DNA of 64,000 nt. It comes from Christensenella sp. UBA7862 (GTDB lineage Bacteria; Bacillota; Clostridia; Christensenellales; UBA1242). Under the pieces are notes generated by a model. It was given only the letters and a program-made list of their open reading frames with translations. It did not search any database and was not told where the DNA came from. Position 1 is the stretch's first letter. Each line of letters opens with the position of its first letter. A program made the position numbers and the translations under genes. Location of the stretch: assembly GCA_002500135.1 (NCBI GenBank), contig DLSM01000001.1:16629-80628 (forward strand), given 5' to 3'. Shown here one piece after another: positions 15,963-59,107 of the stretch.

Positions 15963-16036
15963 TTTTAACATTTTGCGACAAAAAATGACATATTTTTCCA
16001 CTTTTGCTCATAAAAATTACAAAGGAGTATGGTGGA

Positions 16037-16655: not shown

Positions 16656-16723
16656 TATACACGAATAGAACTTTGATTTATATTTCGGGCAAAATTCAAC
16701 ATAATAAAGGATAGGTGCTGGTT

Positions 16724-16789
16724 ATGAAAAAGTTTTTCGTTTTTATGTCTATTATGCTTTTATCTCTTTCAGGGGTTCTTGTCGCTTGT
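16724..16789 (+). other. lipoprotein signal peptide and lipobox of giant protein 1
   Basis: MKKFFVFMSIMLLSLSGVLVAC: basic N-terminus, hydrophobic core, lipobox L-V-A-C. The Cys codon TGT is at 16787-16789. Confidence 0.75.
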
Positions 16790-19700
16790 GGCGGCGGGAG
16801 ATATGACGACCTAAATGTTTCGGTCGTTTCTATCGTCACGTCCGAAAACAAGAATGTGCAATTTAGCAGCAAGGACGGCTGTTACATTCTTGAACCTGGT
16901 GACAAGGTTACAATCAACGCAAAGGCGACTTGCTCAAGCGAGATTGCGGAGGACTTGTTGTTTGACAACTATTCGCCTTCGTCACTTGTGCCAGACGAAA
17001 ACGTAAATAGAAATGCAAAGACATCCTACACTTTCGATGTGAAAGCGCCAAGCGGTGAAGGGGTGTTTAAGATTGTTGTTAGGTCAAGAGAATCTGACAA
17101 TGGCGCAAAAACACTTCTATTCAAAGCTCCTGATGTTCCTACTCAAATCGCTTTCAAAGAAGGTGGTGTTGGTGTTGCTTATGGCTCAAGTGTAAACATC
17201 GCTGATGCAATTAAATTCTCAAGCAAGTTCAGTGAAAAATTTCCACAATATGAAGTGGGCGACAAAAACCTGAGATATGAAGTTGTGTCCGCTTTGAAAA
17301 ATGGCTCTGACGAATGGGAACTTTCTTACGATGGAGCAACTGGTGTTTTCTTTGCAAAAATTGATGGACAAGATGTTGAGGTGTTTAGCATTGTAAACGG
17401 AAAACTTGAAATCCTTGACCCAAGAGTTTATGGCGAATTTGAAATTGTTGCAAAAGCGAATAACTATGTTGACAATCTTCCAGCGTCTGCCTCTGCAGAT
17501 AGGAAACAGGCAAACGAAAAACTTAAAACTCAAGCAACTGTTAGCATCGTTGAACCAATCACTGTTCAAAATATTCAAATCAAAAGTGGAAAATCTGCTG
17601 GACAAATTAACTTCTCAAACATTCCACAAGAAACAAAACTTTCTGCATTGCTCCTAAACAACTTCTCGGGCGAATGGAAAGATGCGGATAACGATAGTCA
17701 CTTCTACAATCTCGAAAATGTTACCGTTTCTCTCAGAAATAAAGATGCAGGTAAAATTGATATTTCAGCACTTCTTGAAAGTGGCATGGGGTCACTTTCT
17801 GTTGATAATAGCAAAGAGGCAACCGAACTTACAAGCGGTGGAACTGTTAGCGGAAAAGAAAAATCTTTCACATTCTCGGCAAGCGGCACTGCGGGAACTG
17901 CATTTGTTGATTTTGTGTTTACATATCAATTTGGAAACAAACTTGAAATCAAATTCTCTGACCTCTATGAAGAATATTTGAAAAATCTTTCAGAAGACGT
18001 GATAAACTATCTCAAAAATCTCTATGGCGACAGTGTATTCAACAAATTTGTTCAATTTGATGTTCAATCTGTTCCAGACGGCGTGAGTGTTTATAGAGAA
18101 AATGACAGAACTGCCTTGAAAGAAAATGACATTGTTGCTGTTTTTGACAGATACAACGGGACTCGTGGCACAAAGTTTGAAATCAATATCCCATTCAAAA
18201 AGGGAACAAGTGACCAAGATAAAAAAGTTAAAGTTTATATCAAATCAGAAAATGTTGCTAGCGACTTCCTTGAAGTTAGTGACTATAACGGGACAATAAA
18301 TCTTAAAACCGAACAAGTTGACGGCGAAACAATTTACTATTTTGAAAGAGATTTGTCAGTTGATACACAAAACGTTTTCTATGTCAAGGCAAAACAAGGT
18401 TCAAATTTTGAAAACAAGACGTTTGAAGTGACAGTCGAAAGTTTGATTGAAACAAAGATTAAACTTTCAAACGGACAAGTTGTTTCTTCAAATTCTGAGA
18501 ATGGCGAACTTAAAAACAAAACATTTACTTTTAACATTGCACCAAGAAAAGGTGTAAGTGAAATAGCCGTTAAAACAATGGTTGCTAGCGACAATTTCCC
18601 AACACTTGGCGAAGAAGGTGTTTATAGCAAACTTGTGTTGCAAAAACAAAATGGTGACGCTGCCAAAGGGACTTTGATTGCATATGCTTTGGACGCAGAT
18701 CCAAGTTCTGATATTACATTGAGTTATGACTCAAATGTTGTTAAAGTTCAAGCAGTGTCCGATGTGGCAAGTGGGTTCTTTGCGGGACAATTTGCTGACG
18801 GGCAAAATCTTGCGGGTGTGTTAAGCGTTATTGGCCTTAAAAAAGGCGAAAGCAAAGTAACTCTTGAAGCGGATAATGGCTGCAAAGTTGTAATTTCCGT
18901 GCTTGTTGTTGAAAGTTTTGATGATGACAAAGTTGTGCTTACTGTTTCTGGTGACAGTGCAATAGCAAGCAACAATTTGGCGACAAATGGCTCAATAAGC
19001 GTTAGAGTTGGCGAACCTTTTGAAGTTTCTTACACCGTGGCTTCGGCTCAAGACGCTGTAAGAAGTGTGGCGTTCCTTTCTTCAAATGAACAAGTTGCAA
19101 CTATTTCTCAAAGAGGAATGGTGACAACTGCTGCTTCTGGCGAAAGTATTGTAACTCTTGAAATTAAATTCTACGCTTTTGGAATTAACAATGGATATGA
19201 CGTTTGGACAGAAAGAACTTGCACAAGACAAGTTAAGGTTCAAGCATTTGTTCCAGCCGTTTCCAAAACTTTAAGCAAAACTGAAATTCATGTTTATGAC
19301 TACAACTCTCTTGGCGGAGATTTGCCAAGTTTTGATATTCAAGGCAAAAAAGATTTGTCCAAAGTTTCATTTACAATCAATCTTGAAGGAAAAGACGGGC
19401 AAGTGCCAACAATCGTTGGAACAAATTATGCAGAAATAAAGATTGCTTCGGAAGATAGCAGATATATTGTCGGCTCACTTGACGGAAATGTGTTCTCGGG
19501 TGTGGCATATCTTCCAAGTGGTGTAACTTCAAAACACGTTAGAATTGAAGTTGTTATTGAAGAATATGGCGTAAAAGTTTCTAGATTCTGTGATGTTTAT
19601 ATTGAAAAAGCAGTTATGGTGGATGATATTGGTGTTGCTGTAACTGAAAATGGAACTGACCTTGAACTTGAAACTGTGGAAAATAAATCTGCAACTTTGC

Positions 19701-22700
19701 TTGCAACAACAAAAGCAGGCAAAACTTTGACCTTTGAAACTTCAATCTTGCCACAAGATGCAAGGGACAAAGATCTTGTTGTGGAATTGTTCCGTGCAAC
19801 AAGCGGCTACGACAAAGGTGCAAAATTTGTAAGTCTGGAAGAAGAAAACTTGCCAAAGATTTCTTACAAAGGCGAAGAAGCATATGAAACCATTGTCCGT
19901 GCGGGCGATAACTTCAATATCTTTATTGACAATGCAAGTTCGGGAGTGTTTATTGTTTCTATTTCCAGTGCAGATAGTGTGATAAGCGAAACGAAAGAAG
20001 ATACATATTATGTTAGGACATATAATAAAACACTTAATATAGTAGTTAAGATTGAAGACGGAAAACTTGTCCCTTATGTTATCAAAAATTCTGACGACCT
20101 AAGAGAACTTAACAACTCAGACAGAAACTTTGTTTTGGGTGCGGATATTTCTCTTGCAAATGAAAATTGGCAACCAATTCAAAACTTCTCGGGAACTCTT
20201 AATGGCTATTCAAACGGAAAATATTTCAAAATTACTGGTCTTACATTGAACGATGTGGCGGGCGAAAATGTTGGCTTGTTTGCAACCCTTGAAAACAGAG
20301 TTGAGGGCGGCGAAACTGCAAGTGACCCAATAAGAAATTATTATGGCTCAATTATGAACCTTAAACTTGTTGTGTCACAAATTGTTGTTACAACTTCAAG
20401 CACAGCGGCAAATGTTGGTGCTTTGGTGGGACTTAACAAAGGTCTTATCGTCAACTGTGCAGTGGAAGTTAATAACTTTAAAGTTACAACTACAAACGCA
20501 ATGAATATTGGCGGAATGGTCGGCGAAAATAACGGCGTTATCTTGTCTTCTGAAGAATCTTTTGGAAAGGGTAACAATAGTTTGGAAGACGAAACAAGCC
20601 AACTTGGATTGTTGCTTGACCATTACATGAGAGGCGAAACAAAGGACATTCGTTCTCTTGCAGATTTTGAAAATCTTGACTATGTTTCTGAAACTGTTGT
20701 AAAAGGCAATTTGGAAATCAATGCAACGGGTGCAGTGAATGTTGGCGGAATTGCAGGCAAGAGTGCTGGCATGATAAACGGCATTTATGGCGTGTTTGCA
20801 AGAAAAGACGAACTCGCAACAAGCACAAGCAATGCCTTTGCAACTTCTTATGAAACTGAAGGTGTTGACTCTGATGTAAACATCAACACAACTGGCGGAA
20901 GTATCTCTGGCGAAAACGCAAATGTTGGCGGAATTGTGGGCTTTGTCAGTGGCGGAAGTGTTGTAAATGTTTCTGCAAATGGTCAAATTGGCTATGTTCA
21001 AGATAATGCAGTTCGTGGCGTAAATAAAAATGTTGGTGGTGTTGCTGGCATAATTTATGGCGAAAACAATGTAAAAGTCAATAATGTTTTGACAACTGTC
21101 AGAGTAAGCGGCAACGACTTTGTTGGTGGCGCAGTGGGCAAGGCTCAAAATGCAACTCTTGATCTTGTGCGTGTGGAAAACAATAGCGGAAACCTCGGTG
21201 CTTTGGTTGTTGCAAATTCTGGCACAGTCGGTGGTGTTGTGGGTTATGGCAAGAATGTTACAATTTCTCACAGTTACTCACAAGGTTATGCAGATAGTTA
21301 TAACAGCACATACATTGCAAACGGCGACTTGAAAGTTCTTTCAAATGCAACTGTCGGTGGAATTGTTGGCAATGCAGAAGACGTGAGCATTGAAAATAGT
21401 TTCTCAACATTCAACTTTGTTGGCACAAACAATGCTGCAGCAATCAATCAAAGCGAAGGCGTAAATATTCAAAATGTTTACTATATTGGTGTAGGTGCAA
21501 GTTCTCTTTGCGGAACGGGCAAAGTGGCAAACGGCTTTAGTTTCTTTGTTGCACTTGAATACAAGGAAGGCGCAGCGGGTGTCCAACTTGCAGTCAAGGC
21601 AAGCAATTTGTCGGGGCTTAATGGCGGAGATGACAACTACTTTGTGGAAAATGAAACAATGAGAGTTGTTTATCCTTATGCAGAAAGCGAAGGAAATCTT
21701 GACTTTGAGTCAAAAGTTTTGGCATACACAAATAAAGGCGAAAAATATAGACTTTCTAGAAATATTCCTACAAGTATTTCTACAAAAGCAAACAACAATT
21801 CTGGTGTGGCAAACTTCCATGAAACAAAATGGAAACTTACATTTAACACAACAGAAAGCAATTTTGCAAAAACAAAATTCTTCGCACTTCAAGATGAAAG
21901 CTTCCAAAACGGACGTATGGCAATAGTTGCCAACCTTTCAAGCGAAGAAGAAAGAAATACACTTTCCGTTCAAGATTTGTTTGACATAATTGCTCTTCCA
22001 AGTGGCGTTAAATCTGCTCATCTTCTTTTGGAAATGTCAAGAAACAATATTGCAGAAGTAACTTCAGACGGAAATATTGTTCTTAAAAATGCAGGTTATA
22101 CAACTCTTAAAATCGTTGTCAAAGAAAACAAGTCTGTTTCTTGCGAAATTGACCTTTATGTTGTAAGAAACTTTGATAAACTTGTCTTGAACTCGGGCAT
22201 TACTCTTGCAGAAGATTACATTGGCAAAACAACAACTGTTGGAACAAATGTTGACGTGAATGTTATTGCAACTTTGTGCGAATATACAAAAGTAACGCAA
22301 GACAGAGTTATTTATGGCATTTTGGGCAATTCACAATATGTTTTGACCTCAGTTTCCAGTGAGGGATATTCTCTTAGACTTGACGTTTATGACGCAGAAG
22401 GAAATAGAGCGGCAGAATACTTTAACTCTGCTTCTCAAGAAGAAAAAGATAACGCTGTGTTTGTCAGAAGTGCAAACTCACTTAAATTCCTTAAAGTTGG
22501 CGTGTGGACAATTAAGCCAGTTGTGGAATATGCAAGAGATGGCGTTGAATTTGAATACATTTGTGACGACTGGACTTTCTATTTGAATACAATTTCAGGT
22601 GCAACAAACATCACAACAAGAAGCGAATCAAAAGAAATTACACTTTATGGTGAAGTTAGAAATGACAATCTTTCTGTTGTTGTGACGGCAGATAGTGACG

Positions 22701-41455: not shown

Positions 41456-41470
41456 TTTCTTCGCTAAAAA

Positions 41471-41515
41471 AATGACCTTGAGCGGGTAACTCGCCCGCTT
41501 GAGGAGTCATTTTGA
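41471..41515 (+). terminator. long rho-independent terminator hairpin after giant gene 1
   Basis: AATGA-CCTTGAGCGGG ... CCCGCTTGAGG-(AG)-TCATT gives an 11-bp core stem with two G-U pairs, plus 5 more bp across a 2-nt bulge. It is followed by TTTTG. Confidence 0.65.
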
Positions 41516-41516
41516 A

Positions 41517-41593
41517 ATGCACAAAAAATGCACAAAAAATGCACAAAAAATGCACAAAAAATGCACAAAAAATGCACAAAAAATGCACAAAAA
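41517..41593. repeat. seven perfect tandem copies of the 11-bp unit ATGCACAAAAA (phased A6 tracts)
   Basis: Counted directly: copies start at 41517, 41528, 41539, 41550, 41561, 41572 and 41583. The array lies between the terminator of giant gene 1 and the start region of giant gene 2. Confidence 0.95.
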
Positions 41594-41638
41594 ACAAAGA
41601 AAAATTAAACAAAATTAAGGATACTTGAGAAAAGGATA

Positions 41639-41668
41639 TTGAAATACAAAAGATAAATTTTACATAAA
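41639..41668 (+). promoter_or_regulatory. weak sigma-A-type promoter candidate for giant gene 2
   Basis: TTGAAA (41639-41644), 18-nt spacer, CATAAA (41663-41668). This is the best match I could find between the repeat array and the AGAGGAAG ribosome-binding region. Confidence 0.3.
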
Positions 41669-41699
41669 TTTTAATTCCAGATTGAAAGAGGAAGAAGAA

Positions 41700-41768
41700 A
41701 TGAAAAAGATTTTTAGCAAGATAATGATTTTTTTGCTGATAGTGTCTTCGCTTGTAATTTTCGGTTGC
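41700..41768 (+). other. lipoprotein signal peptide and lipobox of giant protein 2
   Basis: MKKIFSKIMIFLLIVSSLVIFGC with lipobox I-F-G-C. The Cys codon TGC is at 41766-41768. Confidence 0.75.
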
Positions 41769-50700: not shown

Positions 50701-53700
50701 GCATTGTTTCTCGTGCGGGCATTGTGGGCGGATTTGTGTATAGCAACAACGGCACAATTTCCGATTGCTATTCAAACATTTGGCTCAGTTCTTCGGGTGC
50801 TATTGCAGGCTTTGTTTATGTGGACTCAGCAAGCAGCATAATTTCAAGAAGTTACTCCATAAGTTACAAAAAAGCAGGGGATAACAACACAACAGCCTAT
50901 CCTTTCGCTGGACCAAAAACTCTTCTTTCAACAGAAGTGTGCATAAATGGTGTTTTGAACGATTGCTTCTTCCTAAATGACAGAACAAAAAATGATAAAT
51001 GGGAGAACACAAACTTCTATATAGAAGGTCAATCAGACCCAGCAAAAACTCCAGCGAACAAAAAAGCGGTGGAACTTTCAACTGCAAACTTCGCAACTCA
51101 CACGTATTTTACAAATTATGACCTATCTTTGGTTTACAATTCAGACGGACAATATGCAAATGATGACAAATATAGTTATGTTGACGGCTACACATGGGCA
51201 ATTATTGAAGGCAAGCCAGTTTTGGCTTCAACGCTGGTTAGGACAATTTCTCAAAGAGATTATTTGGGCAAAAAGAAAAATTACACAGGCTACACTCAAA
51301 TTTTTGCACTTCAATCCACTTCGGATTGGAAGTCAGCAAAAAGAGATAATGACCCAAGCATAACAGATTACACAAGTTCTTCATCGGGCAAACTTCTTTT
51401 CTCAAAACAAGACAACGGAGATACTGTGGACTTTATCTATCCAGCAGTTGAAACGGCAAACGGAAATTACGAAAGCCTTGTTATAACTTATCAAGTTGTA
51501 AAGGACGGCGGAAAGACGACTTATGTAAACCCAGTTGCAGAATATGGCGAAGACAAGCGTGTGCTTGACATTCAAGAGGGAAGCATAAATGACGAAAACC
51601 CAAAAGACACAAACTTCAGAGCAAATGACACAATAACTGTAACATTTGACTATGAAAATAACTTCATTTCAAGCATAACTTACTACACCCTTGACGAAAA
51701 CAACATCACATACTATTACAAGGGTGACGTGTCGGGCATTTCTTTCGCAAGTGGCAATCAAACAAACCCAGTTACAATTTATGACAGAGATTCTTTGGTG
51801 TATGCTTTAACAAACACAGTTTCAAGCGATGACAACCTTGACAAATATTTCAGAATTATTTGCGACATAGACCTTGACGGCGAATTCTTGTCAACAAGTA
51901 AGACAAATTTCACTGGTGTCTTGCAAGGCAATCACATGACAATAGACAACCTTTCAATGTCATATAACAGGTGGCAAGCAGACCAAGTGGACAAAGAAGC
52001 ATTTGGAATGTTTGCAAAAATAACCTCAGACGAGAAGAAAGATACAATTATTTCAAACCTTAAACTTGGAATTGTTCAAATAGTGTCAAATGTTCACCCA
52101 TATGTCGGCGCTCTTGCGGGAATTGTTACAGGAACGTCAGTCAAAACGGACAAAAAAGTTCTTTTCAACAATATTTCAATCGCCGCTGCAGACGGCGGCT
52201 ATGCTCCAGTTCAAGGACGAAATGTCGTTGGCGGACTTGCAGGCTACATTGGCAGAAATGTTATAATAAAAGACATAACAACCGATGTTTCAGTTATTTC
52301 AACATTTGACGCTTCGGGCGATGCGTCAGAAGCAGTGCGTTTGTATTTGAAAGAGAACTCGAATTTGAGCAGTTGCTCTTATGTTGGTGGCGTTGTGGGT
52401 GTGTTTGACGCAACAAGCGTTGTGGACAAGGCAACAAAGAAAAACTACAATGCAAGCAATGTTACAGTTCTATCTGGCAATGCATTCCTAGGTGGTGTAG
52501 TTGGCACAGCGTTTGGACTTTTGGGAACGGACACAATCGCAAACTATGTCAACGTTCAAGTTGAGTCAAACGACACAAGTTTTGTCAAAGCACAATTCTA
52601 TGGTGGCGGAATTGTTGGCGAAAATAGAGGAATCCTCCTCAGTTCGTCTGCAAGAAACGTTGATGAAAATGACTCGACAGTTTCAGTCGGCAAATCGACT
52701 CTTGCTCAATATGACTATTTCTTCAATGCAGCGGGAACTCAAACAGTTGCAATAGGCGGCTTGGTGGGTCTTAACAACGGCGGGCTTATTTCAAATTGTA
52801 TAGGTGCTATCGATGTTAGAAGTTCCAGAACAACAATCGTTGGAGGGGCTGTCGGCAGACAACTTGCTGGCGGAATTGAAAATGTTATTGTTTCTGGCTC
52901 TGTTATGGGTGACAAAATTATAGGCGGTCTTGTGGGAACAATTAACGATAAAGAAATGATTGCTTCTCCAGAGTCATCATTCTCCGAAAAGGCAATGATG
53001 AAAGATGATGACGTACACTTGGCTCTCACTGGCTATAATCTTGCAGAGGGCAGTCAAGTTATTTGTAGAATTTCAAACTGCGTGGCAGAAAACAACTGGC
53101 TATATGAAGATTATGACAAATATGTAAGAAAAATAGAAGCCATAACAAAAGTTGCAGTTGGCGGATTTGTTGGACTTATCTCAACCATAGACAACACAGA
53201 CGAGAATGGAAAAACTTACACTTGGAAAGATAAAATTGTGTTTGACGGGCAAAGCACTTATGTCGGTGCAATTTCAAACGGCACTTCTAAAAGATATCTT
53301 AAGGCTGCTTATGCTTGCAATACTTTTGATTATGCAAAAAATGTTTCCGAAAGCAATTACACAATTCTCTGCAACATACAAGGACAACAATCAGTGTTCC
53401 CAGCAGGACAACAAGAATTGTATGTCAGCACTCAATCTTCAGACATTTCTTACACTATAAAGAGAATTCCATTCACCACTTACAGCGACAAGTCAAGCGA
53501 AGGTGATGAATACAAGAACATTATCTATCAAATTGAAAAAACTGGAAACAAAGACTTCTCACAAGATGAAGGTTTCTATGATGAGATTAAGATTTTGGAA
53601 ATTACATCAAGCAGAGAAACTTATACTGGTTCATTTGAAAGTGGCATATGGTATCATTCGAATAACACTGACAAGCCAGTTGAATATACATGGTTCGCAG

Positions 53701-56700
53701 AACACTTTGGCGTTGTGTATGAAAAATATGAATACAAGTATGAAGACGGCACAGTTGTTACGGGCATACAAAAAGTTGTTGACTATAATCACATGGGCGA
53801 AGACGATGACCTAGTTAAAGCTTTTGGAAATTATAATATTGAGGCTAGCGGAGAAAACACATTTTATACTGTTGGATACAATGATTTATCAAAGCTTCCA
53901 ACAAGAACAATGGTGGTTGACGCAACAAAGAATGAAACAAAGGAAATAACTCCAGAAACCGCTACAACAACCTTCTGCTATATTGCTCGTCCAACAATTT
54001 CAAAATTTACATTTGATAGAACGTTTGATTACAAATCAAATAATGAAGTGATAAACGACATTGCTTTGTATGGCGGCATTGAAAATACTGGGGCTATCAA
54101 AAATGGTGCGAATAGTTTTGCAGAAGTTGGGTTATTGACCAATCAAAGCACATTCATTCTAAACGGACTTAAGTTGTTTGAATTTGAGGATGACAAACCA
54201 ACTTCATTATGGACAGAAGTTGAAAAGGACTCAAAAATCTACAGACTTTCAGAAGAAATGCTTGCAGTGTGGGGTGGAGTTGACCTTCCAGACGGTGGGA
54301 AGATTGTTGACATTACAATTCATGTGGCACAAGCAGAGGTGGATAAAACTTGGTATGTTTCAAAAGTTATTTTGACTTACAAATATGACGGCGTGGTGGT
54401 TGAAGACAATTCTTCAAAAGCAACATTTCTAAAGCAAAGTCAAAACCCAGACAACCCACTTGAAACAACATATTCTCTCATTTCTTCAGCAAAGAAATCA
54501 GCATTTAAGTCATTTGATAGTGGTTATTGGATTTTTGCAAACGATTTCTATTCGGGCGTTATCCCATTTGAAAGCAAATATCCACAAAACATTGAATATG
54601 CAGAAACTTATGTGTGGGAAGACTTCAGAACAACTGGAGAAACTGGACTTATAACAGAGATAAAAACTGCAGAGGATCTTGCACTATTTGCATACCTTGT
54701 GAATAGCGGAAACGATTATGCAAATCAAGAAGTTAAACTTATAGCAGACATTGATTTAAGCGGCAAGTATTGGATTCCAATTGGGAAAGACGCAGCTCAC
54801 CCATTTAAGGGAAAATTCATTGGACAAGGACGCACAATAAAATATATTTCCGTTGACGAGAATTCTCTTGCGAAATCAGAGGAAACAAAAGTTGAATATG
54901 CAGGACTGTTTGGCTATCTATCAGGTGCAGCAATTTCCTCGCTTACACTTTTGGGCGGCGAAACAAAAGGTAATTATGCAGGCGGACTTGCGGGGTATGC
55001 AGAAAATTCAAAATGCTCTGGCATAGCAAACAGAAATAATGTTATTGGTGACAGTTACGCAGGTGGACTTGTAGGGCAGGCTACAAAATCTACATTCGAG
55101 GGTTGTATAAATTATGCTGAAGTAAAATCAAGTAACAACTATGACGCACAAAATGTTTATGTAGGCGGGCTTGTAGGACAAATGACCAGCGGCGAAATCA
55201 AAAACCCAGAAGGCGTTGAAACTGCAAACAATGGCACTATTCAAGCACAAAGCACTCACAACAATCACTTTGGAGAAAACCCTCATAAAATAAACCTTTA
55301 TGCTGGTGGCATAGTGGGTTGTGCAGAAAATGTTAAAATTTCATGCGACCTTAAAAACTATGGCAATGTAAATGTTACAACAAACGCAGCAAATATTTGG
55401 GCTGGCGGCTTGTTTGGGAAATTGAACACAACAAGTTGTGCTGGAATGTTCAACAAAGGCAAAGTTTCCGTTGTAAACTCCAACAGAAATACAACAGACA
55501 CAAGGTCAAAGATGTATGTTGGTGGAAACGTTGGTGAAGCAATAACAAGCATGTCACAAATGTCAAATGAAGAAGATGTGACGGTGGTGTGTGACTTGGT
55601 TACAAGACTTGATAGTTATGTTGGCGGAATTGCTGGCTTGCTCTCGGGAAATTTAATCGAAAGTTACAACGCTAAAAATATCACATTCACTTCAAAAGGT
55701 GGCGATGCGGCATATGTCGCTGGACTTGTGGGTGTTATGTCTTGTGCGGAAGGCTCGGACGTGATAGCTGTTTCAGATTGCTACAACTCGGGCAAGGTTA
55801 CAACAACCTGCGGCGGCGTAGGCTATGTTGCGGGAATTGCTGGACTTTGCGAGGGAGCAACAAATCATGTTGTAATCAAAAACACGCTTTCCATAGGACA
55901 AATTTCCACTCAAAGTGGGGAAGGCGCATGCCTGACTGGAGCAATTACAAACTACACAGCAAACACAAGCCTAATTTACAGACCAGAAAATATTGTTGAC
56001 GAAGCACAAGCAGTTTCGACATTTGCAAACTTCTTCCTTCGTGGCACTGCAGTTATGGACGGGCAAACTCAAGACGGGCTTGGCGGCGAACTTCCAGCCA
56101 ATTATGAAGAAGAAAAATTTGCAAAAGGCAGAATTTCCACAACGCTGAAAGAAGAAAGCACTTACAATCCAGAGGGCGAAGCAATTTGGAACTTTGGAAA
56201 CGGTGTTGGCAAGGCAACTTGGGAATGGAAATATGCAACTTGGTATCCAACACTTGCCAATAACTCTCCAAACACCATTTGGACAGACAGTGTTGAAGAT
56301 ATGGTTCAAGTTGGCGGAGATTATGTTATTGACACTCCAGAACAACTTGCAAAACTTGCACTTCTTTCAAATTCTGGCACACTTGACACAAAAGGCAAGA
56401 CGTTTAGACTTAGAAACGCAATCGACCTTTCAAACAAATTGTGGATTCCAATCGGGACAGAAGAATTCCCATTCGAAGGAACATTTGAAGGTGGCGGCTA
56501 CTCAGTGTATAACATGACCGTTGACGGCTCAGCAGTTGTTTTAAGTGGCATTAAAGATTTGAAACTTGGCGGATTGTTTGGCGTGGTTAGAAATTCCAAA
56601 ATTGCAAACCTTGGCGTAATTTCTCCTATCGTTAAAAATGTGAACAACGCAGCGGGTGTTGTTGCAAAAGCCAATAACACACTTATCCAAAATGTTTACA

Positions 56701-59075
56701 CAGAAATTGGCGAAGCAAAAAGTTGCGGCATTGTGGGCGACCTTGTTGCAGGCGGCATAGTTTGCAACCTTGAAAACAGTCTTGACACACAATCAGCGAA
56801 ACTTGGACTTCACACAAGTTACAACAATGTTCCAGTTGAAGCAAATGCAAAATTGACTGAAAGAACACAATGTGTTGGCGGGCTGGTGGCAAATCTTAAA
56901 AATTCTTCAGTTGTAAATTGCTACAACGGGACAAACGGACTTGTAAGCATTGGCAGTCCATCAAAGCCAAGCGAAACAGTTATGGTTGTTGGCAGTCAAG
57001 AAAACGGAGAACTTGTAAATGTGTTTAACATTTGTACAAATGGCGGAAAAGAATTGACCGCAACCCCAGCATTGTTTGAAATTGTTGACGGCGAAATGAA
57101 GAAAGTTGACGGCGAAGGTGTGACCCCAGTGTTTGACAATCTCACCTCTTCCACTTCAGACGGCAAAAAATCTACAATTTGGGCAAAAGAATATTCACTC
57201 AACCCACAAGGCTCAAAAGGTGAACTTTATCCTTCACTTCGTGGCGTGGGACTAGAATGGAAAAACACAGAATGTGACTCACTTCTCAGTTTCTCCACTC
57301 AAATTGACGGATACAAGTCAAGAGTAAGAGCGGCAGCAGACGCAAATGATATTATGTTCGCTGAAGAAGTTCTAGGCGCTCAAGAACTATCAAGCAAAGA
57401 CTCTAGCATAAATCAAATTTATCTTATCTCTACCCCTCAAGAACTTGCATGGCTATCGCTTGCAGTTAACAGTGGAATGAGGTCGGCTCATTGTGAGTTT
57501 ATCCTCACAGCAAACATTGACCTCTCTGGACGCTTCTTCACTCCAATAGGTCAAAGCGAGCAAACGGCTTTCTGCGGTGTGTTCAACCTTAACGGACATA
57601 CAATAAGTGGTCTTACAATCGACAACTTAAGTTACACTTATGCTGGACTGTTCGGCTGGACAAGCAACGCATATATCATAAACGGATATGTAAAAGACGC
57701 ATTTGTCAAAGTGGAAAGTTCGACATCAACAGCAAATATGTTTGTTGGAACAGTTGTCGGCTATGCGAACAACACGACAATCAAAAATATTTCAGTTTCA
57801 ACAGCAGTCCTTGCAAAGAATGTTGGCAAAGTGTATGTTGGCGGTGTTGCGGGTTATGTTTCTGGAACTATCCAATACAAAATGGAAAACATCATAAGCA
57901 GACCTTCTACAAAAACACTTTCTGCAGGCGAAAACTACATTGACCTCAGCGACTATAGCACAAGAATTTATGAGGAAGACTCAACTTCTGGTGCTTCAAA
58001 ACTCAAAGATGTTTCAATTAACATTGGCGGAATAAGTTTGTCAGAAAGAGTGTTCGCTGGCGGAATTGTTGGCTTTATGTCAAACTACAACAGCGAAGCA
58101 ACCTTGGCGGGAATGTCCTACTGCACAAACGAAAGCAATGTTGTCGCAATGTCTGTTGGCAGTCAGCCAGCAAATGTTTATGGCGGTGGTGTTGCAGGAT
58201 ATTTGGCAAATCAAATGGCTATTGAAGCGTGTCAAAACTCTGGAGCAATAAAGACAAGTTCCACATTGTTTGACGCAGTGGGCGGAATTGTTGGATATAT
58301 GTTCTATGGCACAATGAGAAATTGCCACTCCACAGGATATGTTGAAAGTTGCTTGAATTCATCTATAAAAGGTGAAACTTCAAGCGGAAGCGTGTTCTCA
58401 TACATTGGCGGAATTGTCGGCATATCAATCGGCGGAACAATAACCCACACAATCTCTCAATCTTCAACTTATCAAGATGTTCTAACGGGCAAAAACATTG
58501 CAGTCGGCGGCATCATTGGATATTCAAGAGATAAAGACAACTTTAGTGGTGATGTAAGTGTTATGTTTGACAGTGCAGGCAACTTTGGTTCGGCAACAAC
58601 GGGCATAGGACTATCTGACCCAGCTATTGATAAAAATGCAACTATTTACTCATCAGATTTCACCAAATTCTCAATTAACTCAGCAGACCAAACATTGTTC
58701 CAACCAACTTACTGGTCAGGCAATTCTTCAGCCATTCACCTCAAATCACAAAAAGCATACATTGCGCTTACAAGTGTGTTTGCAGCAAATATTTCTCTTG
58801 TAGAAAAAGATGATGGGTCAAGATCCCCACTTGTCTATCAAGAACAAGGCAACACTTTCCGTGGACTTTTGGCAGATACTGACGGGAACTATTCACTTGA
58901 AGTTGCAAAAGATAGCGAAATGGAGGCAATAACACTTACAATCTTAAAACTTGACGGCACAAGGGAAGTTGTAACACAAGAAACAGACTTTGGCACAAGT
59001 GAAAGTGTAACAGTTGAAATTGCAAACTATGTAAAAGATGCAGTGTGCATATTTGTGACAGTGGTCAAAAAATAA
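41700..59075 (+). CDS. giant surface lipoprotein 2 (5,791 aa), paralogue of giant protein 1
   Basis: A stop-free 17.4-kb frame, with ATG 41700 after AGAGGAAG. The architecture matches gene 1: lipobox, about 1,160 aa of Ig-like segments, then GLUG-like cassettes (TFGGIAGINFGEILECTTSF, VFGGIAGVNFGRIEL, YVGGLVGQMTSGEIKN). There are three well-conserved C-terminal cassettes. Confidence 0.85.
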   Translation: MKKIFSKIMIFLLIVSSLVIFGCKERYGDLRMSLNFCFTSFSSRTLEDGTKRWTNASDNSVVDENLDGSYTLYIYGNTQGSAYIDATFTGTPDDFNSDIGVSLSNPILTVGKKQYIDGGIRFSVTPNQEGSTVLTVLSAEGNKQRSVNISVAQVPTALRFKESKIALSYKGGTTTNLADGLENNLSFGMRNVAFELGELSGEGETLLDRFTPFSSIQLAAKNISLNAGVLTLLEDYDLQENGEIYVRATYSNPLGDDLVQLQQIEFLPQISNFEIYTFDEASSNGLGSKVGDSNNILSTINFVTNIAITHKDFVLRVDTNGKKLNISSVEDSLCPFTVSVQPNYENYGLTFGQNSLPIRYFNADGEITTEGNISHSTYALCYIRLVPSKVKSTEGSANYPQGTYDMLFRCEYVDYANEEFATSATLRTKCYTVVNNYAANGNILQNNNIEGNFVEDNCFAAELMTNFDASLGVKISLTVGEPLNVLSNRTAFQIKFYKRQAGSSTISKLSEDEVLNMFQISMDAEGNLLQSGFEGHRFLAGTNFYFKIKEAGEAFIGDDVFMQVVSCEEQSSAECVIKLSLFQGISEITGYDLVLRSREIDETTGDYIIYDRQNVTFENAKASLDLDLSKDYIAILTLNVFPLDATLSNVYVSSLRDNVVLAKVEGGKIILDPQSVGKNVAISLGSSNLRQTYSLEVNVYYPVVSMDAEIVDISSNSSIGDYTIGTRNIYAKVKAKEQVNFLLTTRPYDATRYDMTYTVFDITSGKDMQVKTPYTVYHDGRTTGSSKISDDYFELNCKANAFMFTSDLSNGKTYVVQFKLENLDGTTLEWTFTLSSYVPVEEIDINLSRVEVFDPQSVAYEQKLESGITFDPTNPPENVFGFDVKVNKTSGRTPTKTFEEKSYITIRIDGNIDSIYEVTNGTMAKTSGDNSVLKLLFEGVFGGKYWFELQDNTKNISTIQIEVKIVEFRQSHFARKNISILKHEQVSDIYTDGQTTLRLRDMDIDGDINIPLEIANEKAYNKTLVTQNVSVVTVGGKTMYVVAARGVASASIQSKTNMHATLTISPTGLAGRILIVVLPQDKIYSKAQYEILSGEMREIELSKEDFTSGVFYVQNAGVYEVANEYTDGRKYYAKVVDYSSLLNIWKNTLVVQLDVENGEDVPYSVSSVQDLLNISQNPTKRYVLTNNIRFDSSRTFSSIGGYFEVNITEEQFANGVYYIKNNLDQYVLQTAYRAGQIYYAYGFGGELSGRYEVQDKTSATTHYEYYSIENVYLPSQISSKTFGLFETLYGKVSDVDIKFVFAQPNIANEITFGGIAGINFGEILECTTSFSGAILRTNKQTVFGGIAGVNFGRIELSEKQSSSRSLTGDVTIISTGKELLSVGGIAGLNFGEIVGSFARGNADSVSFGDSAYDSNINITVQISGNENALNNININNIPSRIVKMFENLVVGGENENTSFFIPQSYANISALFAMDRDYSLENAGDGILSGVGGAVGTNFGKISNLSVQGNVSAEDCDYVGGIAGLAVANEKYNSKITDLNGNYSISYSYTSSHVLGNHYVGGVVGAARGFLKSSEVVDENVSDIPVGLYDVGAENYVRDEHSRNFVVGKGEVGGFAGKLVGVNAQYLSVTSYHDEYASQGTTWLANQDNYDVVANETSTGFNLNEINDGLAGGFAGSSDHAKFFACGANVNLWAPSSIASFIFSYMSNEGEYNVANVFGKGVVNASGSSRTWGSLGAGVNFGNNTLSFSKVIDKAGKPTYFVGNTSYSETQFAEQINAKFESSLAQLPWKAEKDASGKVVGLPMLYISYDVKVGETTVTRTEPLFVLGPVTVNVVTRDNVLSNEGWKFVKLDDKTLMLFFAMDEQNSVSSSILTTLNTTKLLELLDITVSPSGAKSNKLIVQSSSDLLEVSGENIIVKSIGKEGSETVTLTISSMLSSQNSTYNAKVQIILCYGLSDVNIYANTSFTAPLSENLGIDLLLSETQTVYANPEFVVEISDEEVNLRAMDNVGLRFEVASDDINPIIENLNGTATSIGNIFTIGSKQWSSVVSNGKIEKYYVNIDATFASFIPLLAIPDGAKLNIKCVPYIYQVVDGERKNFLLEEHSTNFYLSITHGATSIALSNNTQPNFVMNQLQTLSFTIGMATDSVDDKIILDNLLGLSDDLGINVGEYQYEFVDEVGKVEVVGPTETRGKTGLRKISQSFTVWFKDKLAGIKQDKNYVFNFHSSINASVLVSVNVKIIGENEVKSVYTNVYADYDDFPQKSSGGYIYSGLADSPAVLGVEVYPYVTNYSNVRLSYTSSTGDLLFMSPITLDLKNEHGKQFVDNASVAVIGADGKSLTVHKSVGQDTFLSNDSGVYSYARSYFFKLFTDSTVTEGTQFVIKIEIINEQGTVILTKEETVYTLKKPGITFSFDKNLLKDDNDTLYYLPINTKNELSVETINYSDNIKWSLSAVDERGNAYANFSDIKESLEPTKENGKYYVQVLKYGEIFNTDLVGKTVTLRGEITNNKQTYSYEVKFVVTLFTVKNISVQNAENNSLKVKVATTTPLKLDVSAYYDDSVNAENSWYDDWYQNIGSKAGEREKDSLYKNLTNAGYEVKQYFVDYLNDFADSVAKVATDKQGTISGVFKSEDGSQLVSGNKYLEETFGVEKFKDYFALYGLRANRTFNIIFDSQISYSAKNTLESKSAGVPNVCDYLTESYDKIKQFTQTLDVMFVYATELRNAIPVSTADEFISMQEGKDYRLVNDIVLENYTPLSTKIGSFDGNNKVIFIKSFSYNSSSTGSINLGLFEKIESDVEVSGEKKQIVIQNTTVYYTPNVTEEIFESKGETIKILEPSLESLRISLPNASSVTFGGIASSNAGVITNANVLGGVKIEINSSDVVSGGTATSLVGGLVGTNEKTGYITNSSVGAKLFRSKTKQNDEKTYDGFDIYCYGKVGGFVGTNGGKIVASYFESGSIEHNSKEEGVGGFVQTNNGEILECYVQGRRSENDKDIRNTGSGIVSRAGIVGGFVYSNNGTISDCYSNIWLSSSGAIAGFVYVDSASSIISRSYSISYKKAGDNNTTAYPFAGPKTLLSTEVCINGVLNDCFFLNDRTKNDKWENTNFYIEGQSDPAKTPANKKAVELSTANFATHTYFTNYDLSLVYNSDGQYANDDKYSYVDGYTWAIIEGKPVLASTLVRTISQRDYLGKKKNYTGYTQIFALQSTSDWKSAKRDNDPSITDYTSSSSGKLLFSKQDNGDTVDFIYPAVETANGNYESLVITYQVVKDGGKTTYVNPVAEYGEDKRVLDIQEGSINDENPKDTNFRANDTITVTFDYENNFISSITYYTLDENNITYYYKGDVSGISFASGNQTNPVTIYDRDSLVYALTNTVSSDDNLDKYFRIICDIDLDGEFLSTSKTNFTGVLQGNHMTIDNLSMSYNRWQADQVDKEAFGMFAKITSDEKKDTIISNLKLGIVQIVSNVHPYVGALAGIVTGTSVKTDKKVLFNNISIAAADGGYAPVQGRNVVGGLAGYIGRNVIIKDITTDVSVISTFDASGDASEAVRLYLKENSNLSSCSYVGGVVGVFDATSVVDKATKKNYNASNVTVLSGNAFLGGVVGTAFGLLGTDTIANYVNVQVESNDTSFVKAQFYGGGIVGENRGILLSSSARNVDENDSTVSVGKSTLAQYDYFFNAAGTQTVAIGGLVGLNNGGLISNCIGAIDVRSSRTTIVGGAVGRQLAGGIENVIVSGSVMGDKIIGGLVGTINDKEMIASPESSFSEKAMMKDDDVHLALTGYNLAEGSQVICRISNCVAENNWLYEDYDKYVRKIEAITKVAVGGFVGLISTIDNTDENGKTYTWKDKIVFDGQSTYVGAISNGTSKRYLKAAYACNTFDYAKNVSESNYTILCNIQGQQSVFPAGQQELYVSTQSSDISYTIKRIPFTTYSDKSSEGDEYKNIIYQIEKTGNKDFSQDEGFYDEIKILEITSSRETYTGSFESGIWYHSNNTDKPVEYTWFAEHFGVVYEKYEYKYEDGTVVTGIQKVVDYNHMGEDDDLVKAFGNYNIEASGENTFYTVGYNDLSKLPTRTMVVDATKNETKEITPETATTTFCYIARPTISKFTFDRTFDYKSNNEVINDIALYGGIENTGAIKNGANSFAEVGLLTNQSTFILNGLKLFEFEDDKPTSLWTEVEKDSKIYRLSEEMLAVWGGVDLPDGGKIVDITIHVAQAEVDKTWYVSKVILTYKYDGVVVEDNSSKATFLKQSQNPDNPLETTYSLISSAKKSAFKSFDSGYWIFANDFYSGVIPFESKYPQNIEYAETYVWEDFRTTGETGLITEIKTAEDLALFAYLVNSGNDYANQEVKLIADIDLSGKYWIPIGKDAAHPFKGKFIGQGRTIKYISVDENSLAKSEETKVEYAGLFGYLSGAAISSLTLLGGETKGNYAGGLAGYAENSKCSGIANRNNVIGDSYAGGLVGQATKSTFEGCINYAEVKSSNNYDAQNVYVGGLVGQMTSGEIKNPEGVETANNGTIQAQSTHNNHFGENPHKINLYAGGIVGCAENVKISCDLKNYGNVNVTTNAANIWAGGLFGKLNTTSCAGMFNKGKVSVVNSNRNTTDTRSKMYVGGNVGEAITSMSQMSNEEDVTVVCDLVTRLDSYVGGIAGLLSGNLIESYNAKNITFTSKGGDAAYVAGLVGVMSCAEGSDVIAVSDCYNSGKVTTTCGGVGYVAGIAGLCEGATNHVVIKNTLSIGQISTQSGEGACLTGAITNYTANTSLIYRPENIVDEAQAVSTFANFFLRGTAVMDGQTQDGLGGELPANYEEEKFAKGRISTTLKEESTYNPEGEAIWNFGNGVGKATWEWKYATWYPTLANNSPNTIWTDSVEDMVQVGGDYVIDTPEQLAKLALLSNSGTLDTKGKTFRLRNAIDLSNKLWIPIGTEEFPFEGTFEGGGYSVYNMTVDGSAVVLSGIKDLKLGGLFGVVRNSKIANLGVISPIVKNVNNAAGVVAKANNTLIQNVYTEIGEAKSCGIVGDLVAGGIVCNLENSLDTQSAKLGLHTSYNNVPVEANAKLTERTQCVGGLVANLKNSSVVNCYNGTNGLVSIGSPSKPSETVMVVGSQENGELVNVFNICTNGGKELTATPALFEIVDGEMKKVDGEGVTPVFDNLTSSTSDGKKSTIWAKEYSLNPQGSKGELYPSLRGVGLEWKNTECDSLLSFSTQIDGYKSRVRAAADANDIMFAEEVLGAQELSSKDSSINQIYLISTPQELAWLSLAVNSGMRSAHCEFILTANIDLSGRFFTPIGQSEQTAFCGVFNLNGHTISGLTIDNLSYTYAGLFGWTSNAYIINGYVKDAFVKVESSTSTANMFVGTVVGYANNTTIKNISVSTAVLAKNVGKVYVGGVAGYVSGTIQYKMENIISRPSTKTLSAGENYIDLSDYSTRIYEEDSTSGASKLKDVSINIGGISLSERVFAGGIVGFMSNYNSEATLAGMSYCTNESNVVAMSVGSQPANVYGGGVAGYLANQMAIEACQNSGAIKTSSTLFDAVGGIVGYMFYGTMRNCHSTGYVESCLNSSIKGETSSGSVFSYIGGIVGISIGGTITHTISQSSTYQDVLTGKNIAVGGIIGYSRDKDNFSGDVSVMFDSAGNFGSATTGIGLSDPAIDKNATIYSSDFTKFSINSADQTLFQPTYWSGNSSAIHLKSQKAYIALTSVFAANISLVEKDDGSRSPLVYQEQGNTFRGLLADTDGNYSLEVAKDSEMEAITLTILKLDGTREVVTQETDFGTSESVTVEIANYVKDAVCIFVTVVKK

Positions 59076-59078
59076 AAA

Positions 59079-59107
59079 ATATCTCCCAAAATGGGGGATA
59101 TTTTTTT
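59079..59107 (+). terminator. rho-independent terminator after giant gene 2
   Basis: ATATCTCCC - AAAAT - GGGGGATAT hairpin with one G-U pair, running into a T7 tract (59101-59107). Confidence 0.8.

Follow-up and report, generated by a model that had tools for sequence, protein, structure and literature searches.

Two giant genes between spoIIID and rpoB

The 64-kb stretch of DNA analysed here (the window) contains two adjacent genes, A and B, which together cover ~42 kb and raise the question of whether such long frames are genuine, how their products would be held by the cell and what they might do. The computed masses of the proteins are 876.8 kDa (A, pI 4.8) and 629.7 kDa (B, pI 4.7). In the ORF listing, the longest frames begin slightly upstream of the genes given in Table 1, with a GTG for A (16715..41455, 8,246 codons) and a TTG for B (41682..59075, 5,797 codons). 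We adopted the ATG starts at 16724 and 41700, which are preceded by ribosome-binding sites (AGGTG and GAGGA, respectively) and which gene callers also picked on other assemblies.

The original prediction that A and B are real coding genes was confirmed by independent assemblies and by the pattern of substitution. The ENA contig ERZ27300235 k119_29591 is 100% identical to the window across 20 kb, and in a SPAdes assembly from another sample (ERZ808245) the identity is 99.99% and an 8,243-aa gene is likewise called, so that ORF lengths are equal in MEGAHIT and SPAdes assemblies of different samples. Long DNA repeats are absent from both ORFs, in which only motif-level similarities of 33-54 nt were found. 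Moreover, separate assemblies yielded a cluster of 15 proteins that match B from end to end at 87% identity, with lengths of 5,795-5,805 aa in 12 cases. B gives a dN/dS ratio of 0.15 with strain L001 and of 0.13 with L094, the C-terminal 3,150 aa of A give 0.29, and all strain indels in B and in this part of A are in frame. A and B are under purifying selection, with omega of about 0.13-0.29.

Upstream of A lie genes for an M23 peptidase (SpoIIQ-like), ACP and spoIIID. Genes for mobile elements, dedicated secretion or glycosylation were not found within the window, in agreement with the housekeeping neighbourhood originally described, and scans of the window for tRNAs and Rfam families found none. 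A and B probably have a promoter each, as proposed from the perfect sigma-70 consensus at A and the terminator-like hairpin after each gene; the sites are seen in the DNA, and their function is predicted from them. A unit related to the A-tract repeat upstream of B is present in four copies in strain L094.

Table 1. Features of the locus. Positions are those of the window; aa numbers of the module map count from 16715 (A) and 41682 (B).
Feature	Position	Strand	Basis or remark
spoIIID, upstream edge of conserved locus	16037..16288	+	Pfam E=1e-28
Sigma-70-type promoter, TTGACA-18 nt-TATAAT	16626..16655	+	12/12 consensus; ~70 nt upstream of A
Gene A	16724..41455	+	predicted lipoprotein, 8,243 aa
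A signal peptide, lipobox L-V-A-C	16724..16789	+	predicted lipidation Cys 16787-16789
A N-terminal region, aa 26-1120	16790..20074	+	no beta-helix motif; colinear in orthologues
A capped beta-helix module 1, aa about 1121-1700	20075..21814	+	cap HMM i-E=5e-14; GGxxG density
A inter-helix region, aa about 1701-2586	21815..24472	+	all-beta, low-confidence model
A family core, two beta-helices, aa 2587-3100 and 3115-3600	24473..27514	+	AF2, Foldseek, profiles
A middle region, aa 3601-5290	27515..32584	+	caps near aa 3784, 4534 and about 4951
A GLUG-like coil run, aa about 5291-7870	32585..40324	+	no caps
A C-terminal tail, aa 7871-8246	40325..41452	+	no anchor motif or family match
Terminator-like hairpin after A, 12-bp stem	41476..41504	+	
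A-tract tandem repeat AAATGCACAAA, perfect 11-bp unit, 7.3 copies	41515..41594	+	upstream of B
Gene B	41700..59075	+	predicted lipoprotein, 5,791 aa
B signal peptide, lipobox I-F-G-C	41700..41768	+	Cys 41766-41768
B capped beta-helix module 1, aa about 1166-1700	45177..46781	+	motif density, paralogy, cap HMM
B family core, modules aa 2729-3250 and 3358-3760	49866..52961	+	cap HMM E=7e-36, 3e-40
B hypervariable patch, aa about 4020-4120	53739..54041	+	strain alignments
B C-terminal extension, three capped beta-helix modules	54693..58601	+	caps near aa 4338, 4881, 5244
Terminator-like hairpin after B	59082..59097	+	
rpoB, downstream edge of conserved locus	59761..63495	+	

Lipoprotein signals and other anchor motifs

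Both proteins begin with a signal that fits a PROSITE PS51257-type rule, with Cys22 of A in MKKFFVFMSIMLLSLSGVLVAC (LVAC) and Cys23 of B in MKKIFSKIMIFLLIVSSLVIFGC (IFGC). The rule asks for K/R within the first 7 residues, six residues without D, E, R or K, and then [LIVMFWSTAG](2)-[LIVMFYSTAGCQ]-[AGS]-C, with the Cys at position 15-35. It is passed by 151 of 178 full-length family representatives (~85%), and the signal peptide and lipobox of A are kept in A-type orthologues, so that the SPase-II signals first proposed by eye for A and B are borne out in the family. At the other end of the proteins, the original reading of no C-terminal wall anchor likewise held: neither A nor B has an LPXTG motif, an LPXTG-like motif is absent from the last 300 aa, there is no C-terminal hydrophobic segment of the sortase-type anchor, nor any second hydrophobic segment besides the signal peptide, and Pfam shows no anchor family. 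Neither lgt nor lspA lies within the window. Judged by these motifs, A and B are probably lipid-anchored at the surface via their N-termini.

Beta-helix modules and inter-helix regions

Whole-protein Pfam scans of A and B gave no match, and neither did NCBIfam tiles of A. Pfam scans of 1,000-aa tiles of both proteins at E<=1 yielded nothing beyond marginal Glug, with no catalytic family, no direct match to PF05342 (Peptidase_M26_N) and no autotransporter beta-barrel, RTX-repeat or T1SS-type match. Glug (PF07581) scored 22.7 bits near aa 4086 of A and 20.6 bits near aa 3690 of B, against a gathering threshold of 20.5, and further copies fell below threshold. Thus, the GLUG-like repeats of the original prediction are matched once per protein in Pfam, but both times marginally. 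A PDB search by sequence, with A and with aa 1-5,000 of B as queries, found no match, and neither did one with the core profile.

The AF2 model of the core of A (pLDDT 72, pTM 0.82) consists of two right-handed parallel beta-helices, and every top Foldseek match is of the same fold, which lends support to the beta-helix part of the predicted architecture. Confident modelling covers ~1,100 of 14,000 residues; the other helix modules are assigned from shared repeat motifs and are predictions in this sense. The coil motif is G-x-I-x-N/D-C/S-Y, in which Gly, Asn and the aromatics are invariant. The lowest Foldseek E-values (1e-4) belong to PL6 alginate lyases, with TM-scores of 0.1-0.2. Further matches are the IgA1-protease entries 7uvl, 7uvk and 6xja (probability 0.99-1.0), the adhesins PfbA, Ag43 and pertactin, and fucoidan lyase, AlgE4 and AlgE6 epimerases, GH55, GH110 and tailspike depolymerases.

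With lyases, epimerases and depolymerases among the matches and the gut as habitat, A and B could be surface enzymes that degrade or modify polysaccharides, carrying catalytic beta-helices on a lipid-anchored scaffold for foraging on dietary or host glycans. We regard this as unlikely for the proteins as a whole, although, with lyases at the lowest Foldseek E-values, some helices may have an enzymatic role. The absence of enzyme signatures, as originally stated, was upheld: 14,000 aa contain no Pfam or NCBIfam catalytic family even at E<=1, neither protein has an HExxH zinc-binding motif, and the PDB gave no match by sequence or profile. In addition, the invariant Gly, Asn and aromatic residues of the coil motif typify structural stacking, not a single active site, the parallel beta-helix is common to many non-enzymatic adhesins, and the TM-scores are low. 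The link of the A core to PL6 and pectate-lyase-like proteins is one of fold (Foldseek E=1e-4, TM 0.13-0.19), with no match by sequence or profile.

Between the helices, a model of A 1510-2709 built by AF2 from a re-anchored alignment is all-beta and poor (pLDDT 46); its Foldseek neighbours are nectin, cadherins, ClfA, SdrD, UafA and pilins. By this model, the inter-helix regions look like arrays of Ig-like domains. The Ig-like segments claimed earlier are tentatively matched by these neighbours, but Big_2 reached 18.5 bits in A, under the 22.8 cut-off. This sub-threshold hit, the only Big_2-like one, falls in the N-terminal region of A (aa 26-1120), which is presumed to be a beta-sandwich stalk.

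The module maps of the two proteins correspond over much of their length (Table 1). Beta-helix module 1 of A is paralogous to B 1084-1574, the inter-helix region of A to B 2092-2728, and the B core to A 2587-3580. Conservation within the family is highest in the A core, whose two caps are recognised by HMMs with E=4e-41 and 2e-42. The middle region of A contains more capped beta-helix modules with non-helix stretches between them, as well as the Glug match of A. The coil run at aa about 5291-7870 is presumed to be one long beta-solenoid, and Glug matches also support the assignment of the C-terminal extension of B. The original view of A and B as paralogues was retained for the first 3,600-3,750 aa, which are colinear at ~25% identity, but not for the rest, which is not colinear. 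As part of the overall explanation that we favour with moderate confidence, A and B would be anciently duplicated members of one family.

A family of giant proteins at a conserved locus

An exhaustive profile search returned 842 clusters (50% identity) at E<=1e-30. Among the best 150 of the 842 clusters, the median length is 6,051 aa and the maximum 7,993 aa; family members in general have 3-8 thousand aa. Independent members match the double beta-helix core profile A2, which was built partly from A and B themselves, with E from 1e-56 down to 0. Weaker matches are extracellular multidomain proteins with Glug, Peptidase_M26_N, dockerin or Por_Secre_tail. Orthologues are colinear with A at 30-34% identity. 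A word-indexed protein search with aa 1-1,200 of A found no homologue because this kind of search is insensitive, and the result does not signify orphan status.

In many gut Christensenellales-like MAGs, the interval from spoIIID to rpoB contains one member or several in tandem, and in most of 80 related MAGs a homologue lies immediately upstream of rpoB. Relatives have, for example, spoIIID followed by genes for 7,963 and 5,629 aa, or genes for 8,258 and 5,804 aa, or 5,852 and 3,457 aa, followed by rpoB, and one locus is an array of at least three family members. The position is kept in relatives with an RpoB identity of only ~62%. In relatives without a giant gene, neither spoIIID nor rplL lies within 10 kb upstream of rpoB. 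None of the 78 loci listed comes from a cultured isolate, and the habitat of the carriers is the gut. The implied uniqueness of the pair was thus overstated.

All full-length homologues found lack a functional name or Pfam annotation and are called "hypothetical protein" at most; therefore, a functionally characterised full-length homologue, which the original prediction had named as evidence against it, is not among them. Literature searches on giant lipoproteins, giant genes, GLUG together with Christensenellales and the Christensenellaceae cell envelope gave no account of such a spoIIID-rpoB lipoprotein family. On the strength of profile matches and gene order, A and B belong to a large, widespread, uncharacterised and unnamed family of predicted giant lipoproteins of uncultured gut Clostridia of the Christensenellales type.

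The conserved linkage to spoIIID, together with the position of the genes directly downstream of the M23 peptidase, ACP and spoIIID genes, would also suit a sporulation-associated role, in which A and B form forespore or spore-surface appendages or a nap. This is very unlikely given that the promoter at A is a perfect vegetative sigma-70-type sequence, that the linkage to rpoB is equally conserved and that the lipoprotein signal suits export over the cytoplasmic membrane in growing cells; nor was any spore-coat family matched.

Divergence between strains

Against L094, the C-terminal 3,150 aa of A show 59% amino acid identity and B 87%, compared to 99.2% for rpoB. The capless coil run of A evolves fast. 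Identity between strains drops from 93% overall to 52-54% in the hypervariable patch of B, which has in-frame indels and a local omega of 0.46. Orthologues of the A type align colinearly over about 5,100 aa, beyond which the match is patchy.

Rapidly diverging C-terminal regions, extreme length and richness in beta-helices are also what a polymorphic toxin of contact-dependent competition would display, whose filament delivers a variable C-terminal toxin domain. We give this reading very little weight: the divergence spans thousands of residues rather than a C-terminal cassette, the scans revealed no toxin domain, neither gene is followed by a small immunity-like gene (the order is A, B, rpoB), and a two-partner or type VII secretion context is lacking. 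Finally, the short-read metagenome origin of the sequences and a ~7,130-aa homologue that seems to lie on one contig as two pieces of 3,897 and 3,240 aa might suggest that the ORFs are artefacts of assembly or annotation, or pseudogenes in decay. This reading is effectively refuted by the agreement of the assemblies and the lack of long internal DNA repeats, by omega and the in-frame indels described above and by full-length colinear orthologues in more than 10 other clusters. The toxin, sporulation and artefact readings all rank low.

Comparison with known surface proteins

The known systems closest to A and B include the ZmpA-family M26 IgA1 metalloproteases of Streptococcus and Gemella, which share the right-handed parallel beta-helix with A and B and are likewise extracellular proteins of Gram-positive bacteria. 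Their beta-helix is the NTD2 gating domain (PMC9637739), and this domain alone is the beta-helix of the matched IgA1-protease entries. NTD2 is covered by Pfam Peptidase_M26_N and Glug, and intermediates matched by the A/B core profile carry PF05342 and PF07581, as the M26 proteases do. In contrast to these enzymes, A and B have no HExxH or protease domain and no direct PF05342 or profile-level PDB match, carry a lipobox instead of LPXTG, are 3-4 times longer and contain many helices rather than one. A and B are not M26 peptidases; the likeness is limited to the beta-helix fold.

The giant RTX adhesins SiiE, LapA and MpIBP are exported by T1SS with a C-terminal signal, carry RTX repeats and stay attached through an outer-membrane pore. 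They are long extended surface fibres with Ig-like strings and distal ligand-binding regions, a form that A and B may share, whereas no T1SS signal, RTX repeats or features of outer-membrane-pore retention are seen in A or B. Fap2, Pmps, pertactin and Ag43 form long surface parallel beta-helix rods of short Gly-rich coil repeats, as is predicted for A and B; Fusobacterium Fap2 forms a rod (PMC12397386), and the repeat logic of chlamydial Pmps is comparable (GGA[ILV] and FxxN; PMC11166332). These proteins are diderm type V autotransporters with a C-terminal beta-barrel in the outer membrane, whereas A and B come from a Clostridia-class host, lack a barrel, have a predicted N-terminal lipid anchor and alternate helices with putative beta-sandwich arrays.

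In size, A and B are comparable to giant Gram-positive surface proteins such as Ebh of S. aureus, Embp of S. epidermidis and the 7,651-aa adhesin of Mobiluncus mulieris (PMC10619420, PMC6548404), which are also of megadalton scale, the largest of their proteomes, modular and repetitive and presumed adhesive fibres. However, these consist of near-identical tandem Ig-like or helical repeats, and either LPXTG and sortase or a membrane anchor at the C-terminus keeps them in place. In A and B, the modules have diverged and are not identical, beta-helices are present and the lipobox is N-terminal. Very large genes of gut Clostridia have also been described by West-Roberts et al. (bioRxiv 10.1101/2023.11.21.568195) in mammalian gut metagenomes and read as surface or binding proteins. 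They encode 10,000-30,000 aa or more with RCC1, Listeria-Bacteroides repeat, YG, dockerin or LRR domains, and lipoproteins, GLUG motifs and Christensenellales are not mentioned there.

A proposed model of lipid-anchored surface fibres

We consider it fairly likely that A and B are lipid-anchored surface fibres with variable outer parts that serve in adhesion or as a coat. The precursors would be exported by Sec, Lgt would add diacylglycerol to the lipobox Cys, LspA would then cut off the signal peptide, and the mature N-terminus would tether the proteins to the outer face of the cytoplasmic membrane; these steps are deduced from the lipobox motif and its family-wide conservation. The ~1,100-aa N-terminal and other non-helix regions might be strings of beta-sandwiches that form a stalk through and beyond the wall. 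Six capped right-handed parallel beta-helix modules per protein would act as rigid rods leading away from the cell, to which A would add its 2,600-aa coil run without caps. If a helix coil is taken to add ~4.8 Angstrom and an Ig-like domain ~4 nm, each molecule might, as a rough estimate, span about 100-200 nm when fully extended.

The conserved, membrane-proximal two thirds would serve as scaffold and the fast-evolving distal parts as exposed faces that meet ligands, antibodies or phages. We infer a function as fibre, coat or adhesin, most likely as an adhesive or protective fibre layer that binds host or dietary glycans or other cells. As no ligand-binding domain was recognised in A or B, the label "adhesin" is suggested by analogy only.

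Implications

The guts of humans and animals commonly harbour Christensenellales-type Clostridia, of which most lineages are uncultured. The 42-kb locus, the perfect promoter of A and the conserved position point to a major and costly envelope component. A bolder and distinctly tentative reading is that a coat of megadalton, N-terminally lipid-anchored fibres is an unrecognised envelope structure, of which A and B might be the founding and nearly the largest examples. Equally tentatively, an order-level clade of uncultured gut Clostridia might encode this structure at a fixed core-genome locus, from spoIIID to rpoB, and the structure could conceivably be the clade's equivalent of an S-layer or glycocalyx, mediating cell-cell or host association. 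On this reading, A and B would to our knowledge surpass all known lipoproteins in size.

With 842 clusters and no Pfam, NCBIfam or solved-structure coverage or name, the family represents a large blind spot of microbiome annotation. If the lipid anchoring is true, it adds to the known ways of keeping megadalton proteins at the surface of monoderm bacteria. Contact with host, phage or partner microbes may be made by the fast-evolving distal regions, and the conserved core offers a marker and an experimental handle.

Two giant genes under selection upstream of rpoB

Genes A and B encode giant, acidic, predicted lipoproteins (computed 876.8 kDa, pI 4.8, and 629.7 kDa, pI 4.7). They are real genes under selection, as the original prediction held. 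We compared them with two relatives, L001 (which represents this species in GTDB and whose rpoB DNA is 98.8% identical to that of the window) and L094. dN/dS was 0.15 against L001 for B (C-terminal 3,153 codons) and, against L094, 0.13 for full-length B and 0.29 for A (last 3,150 codons), with every indel relative to L094 in frame. The genes recur in independent assemblies: a 362-kb MEGAHIT contig from ENA (ERZ27300235) is 100% identical to the window across 20 kb, and a SPAdes contig from another sample (ERZ808245) is 99.99% identical, its gene caller also giving an 8,243-aa product. B is likewise matched at 87%, along its full length, by a cluster formed at 90% identity whose 15 proteins come from separate assemblies; 12 of these proteins have 5,795–5,805 aa. 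Neither ORF contains long DNA repeats of a kind to mislead an assembler; the sole internal repeats are 33–54-nt similarities of 60–90% identity, which encode a recurring GG(I/L)(A/V)G...G-x-I motif. It is unlikely that A and B are artefacts.

Features of genes A and B and of their surroundings. Amino acid positions of modules are counted from the ORF starts 16715 (A) and 41682 (B).
Feature	Position	Strand	Details
Tandem gene pair	964-3238		Paralogous Rce1-like (CPBP) intramembrane proteases, 369 and 377 aa
A-rich tandem repeat	6309-6339		AAAAAATGGGC, 2.8 copies, upstream of pth
M23 peptidase, acyl carrier protein, spoIIID	14971-16288		Small block
Putative promoter	~70 nt upstream of A		Perfect TTGACA-18-TATAAT
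ORF A	16715..41455	+	ORF listing; ATG 16724 after AGGTG ribosome-binding site; 8,243 aa
Terminator-like hairpin	After A		12-bp stem
11-bp A-tract tandem repeat	41515-41594		Perfect, AAATGCACAAA, 7.3 copies, between hairpin after A and start of B
ORF B	41682..59075	+	ORF listing; ATG 41700 after GAGGA ribosome-binding site; 5,791 aa
Hypervariable patch of B	53739-54041		aa ~4020-4120
Terminator-like hairpin	After B		
A-rich tandem repeat	59108-59137		GAAATAA, 4.3 copies, just past hairpin after B
Paralogous block	A4-183 / B7-204		
Paralogous block	A1046-1555 / B1084-1574		
Paralogous block	A1935-3023 / B2092-3136		
Paralogous block	A3097-3580 / B3338-3758		
Capped modules of A	Near aa 1121, 2587, 3115, 3784, 4534, perhaps 4951		Cap HMMs
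GLUG-like coils without caps, A	~aa 5300 to 7870		After the capped modules
Capped modules of B	Near aa 1166, 2729, 3358, 4338, 4881, 5244		Cap HMMs

The promoter and hairpins are consensus matches and remain putative in function. B has its own ribosome-binding site downstream of the 11-bp repeat, and at the position of this repeat L094 carries four copies of a related unit, AAATGCAAAAA. The A-tracts of the 11-bp repeat are phased at about one helical turn, and this stretch upstream of the putative B promoter may therefore be curved or prone to slippage. Two other short, perfect or near-perfect A-rich repeats lie in intergenic regions of the window (Table).

Signal peptides and modular architecture

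The signal peptides of both proteins satisfy the PROSITE lipoprotein rule (Cys22 in A, Cys23 in B), in line with the predicted SPase-II-type signals. They are also the sole strongly hydrophobic segment of each protein, and LPXTG and HExxH motifs are absent from A and B, so that the expected lack of an LPXTG wall anchor was borne out. The lipobox is widely conserved in the family: 151 of 178 full-length representatives pass the rule, and for most of the others the start codon appears to have been called wrongly.

Whole-protein Pfam scans of A and B returned a single Big_2 match, below threshold (18.5 bits; cut-off 22.8). Tiled scans (E<=1) gave nothing but scattered Glug matches; the GLUG-like repeats originally proposed have marginal Pfam support, with two matches above the 20.5-bit cut-off (22.7 bits in A, 20.6 bits in B), the other Glug matches in the pair falling below it. 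An NCBIfam search of A and searches of the PDB with the sequences of A and of the first 5,000 aa of B and with the core profile gave no matches. We located the helix modules with HMMs of their conserved segment, or cap (consensus P-I-x-x-x-E-F...Y-I-L-x-N-D-I...F-x-G-x-F-D-G-N-G-x-x-I...G-L-F), searched against both proteins. A and B align as paralogues, colinearly and at ~25% identity, up to residues 3,600–3,750; the proposed paralogy does not extend beyond that.

The most conserved part of the family, the core (A 2587-3600), consists of two consecutive beta-helices. An AlphaFold2 model of A 2560-3650 based on 26 family sequences (mean pLDDT 72, pTM 0.82) shows short, regularly spaced strands, and its Foldseek matches in the PDB are exclusively right-handed parallel beta-helix proteins. 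These include M26 IgA1 proteases of Gemella and S. pneumoniae (probability 0.99-1.0), PL6 alginate lyases (E=1e-4), fucoidan lyase, the P22 tailspike, AlgE4 epimerase, and the adhesins PfbA, Ag43 and pertactin. The beta-helix of IgA1 proteases is their NTD2 gating domain (PMC9637739). Weaker matches of the core profile are extracellular proteins with Glug and Peptidase_M26_N domains, often plus dockerin or Por_Secre_tail domains, an annotation that agrees with the fold match to M26 proteases. The resemblance to lyase-like folds such as PL6 speaks for the main, though less likely, rival reading, in which the helices would be enzymatic; nothing in the sequences points to such a role. For the region between helices (A 1510-2709), the model is poor (pLDDT 46) but all-beta, and its Foldseek matches are tandem Ig-like arrays, e.g., nectin, cadherins, ClfA, SdrD, UafA and pilins, so that A may contain such an array here.

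A family of giant proteins at a conserved locus

A word-indexed search with the core profile, which was built partly from A and B, returned ~48 strong relatives (E<1e-56), mostly 3,200–3,480 aa; nearly all lack Pfam matches, and any name given is "hypothetical protein". Word-indexed searching returned almost only members of <=3,500 aa and, with the A N-terminus as query, missed all orthologues; its negatives are unreliable for this family. An exhaustive HMMER search showed that most close relatives have 5,000–8,000 aa. It yielded 6,735 matches with E<=1e-3, of which 842 reach E<=1e-30; every match represents one 50%-identity cluster. Giant size is typical of the family, because the median length among the best 150 of these matches is 6,051 aa and 117 of the 147 retrieved sequences reach at least 5,000 aa (longest 7,993 aa). 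A is among the longest members seen, and L094 has an 8,258-aa A-type gene at the same position. Hence the pair is no one-off oddity: hundreds of variants, all unnamed, exist in public data, and our literature search found no published description of the family.

Orthologues of A (colinear, 30–34% identity over ~5,100 aa) occur in at least 10 clusters of 7,400–8,000 aa, and B has full-length orthologues at 87% (P0097) and 33% (P0123) identity. Since each protein has its own orthologues, the A/B duplication is older than these species. In the P0170 cluster, a ~7,130-aa homologue appears on one 108-kb contig as two proteins of 3,897 and 3,240 aa (P0256, P0257), because the gene is genuinely disrupted or because the sequence contains an error.

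The RpoB protein of the window is 100% identical to that of the MAG "Clostridia bacterium CM_BacUBA273.120" and 95% to that of a MAG named "Christensenellales bacterium". Among relatives with at least ~62% identity, almost all are uncultured gut Clostridia or MAGs labelled Christensenella, and their hosts include humans, ruminants and rabbits as well as other animals. Upstream of A lie, in order, pth, mfd, and genes for a SurA_N-like membrane protein, an LPG_synthase_TM-domain protein, a YwmB-like protein, a putatively SpoIIQ-like M23 peptidase and an acyl carrier protein, followed by spoIIID; rpoB (59761-63495) follows B, with rpoC, rpsL and rpsG coming next in related loci. The block from the M23 gene to spoIIID is intact beside giant genes in other species too. 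A sporulation-linked role for A and B is unlikely. Mobile-element, secretion and glycosyltransferase genes are not in view around the pair, as predicted, nor are sortase genes; tRNA and Rfam scans of the window gave no matches. A search with an approximate B. subtilis sequence found no rplL homologue within 10 kb upstream of rpoB in L001-L080 and the window, and the usual rplJ-rplL-rpoB linkage seems absent in this clade.

A homologue lies immediately upstream of rpoB in most of 80 rpoB-anchored loci from different species. Locus forms include mfd ... M23, acyl carrier protein and spoIIID followed by 7,963 and 5,629 aa; 8,258 and 5,804 aa before rpoB and rpoC; 5,852 and 3,457 aa before rpoB; and spoIIID, a tilS-like gene and two small genes followed by 3,081, 2,886 and 3,012+ aa. 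In distant species the homologue upstream of rpoB is a single ~2,900–3,260-aa lipoprotein matching A 940-1500 and A 2560-3600. A GTDB-wide core-profile scan found 131 relatives; the 78 loci among the matches listed are all from uncultured gut MAGs, none from a named isolate. A family member and a Clostridia-like rpoB (66% identity) also occur on one contig (CALURS010000002.1; L034 and L122) that the public record assigns to "Candidatus Gastranaerophilales", a group related to cyanobacteria; the contig was probably misbinned or mislabelled.

Divergence and a model for the predicted giant lipoproteins

Conservation and colinearity extend over the two thirds predicted to lie closest to the membrane; the distal parts are variable. 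Between the window and L094, RpoB is 99.2% identical, B 87%, and the C-terminal 3,150 aa of A 59% with 235 gapped columns. Two strains of one species share 93% identity over B as a whole and 52–54% in a hypervariable patch of 100 aa (small in-frame indels, local omega 0.46). Such variability would be expected where diversifying pressure acts on surface-exposed regions. Against L001, dS is 0.23 for B and 0.06 for the adjacent rpoB, a roughly four-fold gap in one strain pair that points either to strong codon constraint on rpoB or to a different recombination history of the giant-gene locus.

A toxin-delivery role for the pair is unlikely. Giant modular surface proteins as such are nothing new; what sets this family apart is its predicted anchoring through an N-terminal lipobox rather than LPXTG, T1SS or autotransporter, its many diverged beta-helix modules between putative Ig-like arrays, its fixed core-genome position and its restriction to uncultured gut Clostridia. 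On the best-supported reading, A and B would be fibres exported by Sec and lipidated through Lgt and LspA, and their N-termini would be anchored in the cytoplasmic membrane of a monoderm cell. Rigid beta-helix rods, alternating with stalks of beta-sandwich domains, would project the variable distal regions from the cell and so form a layer of fibres with an adhesive or protective role.
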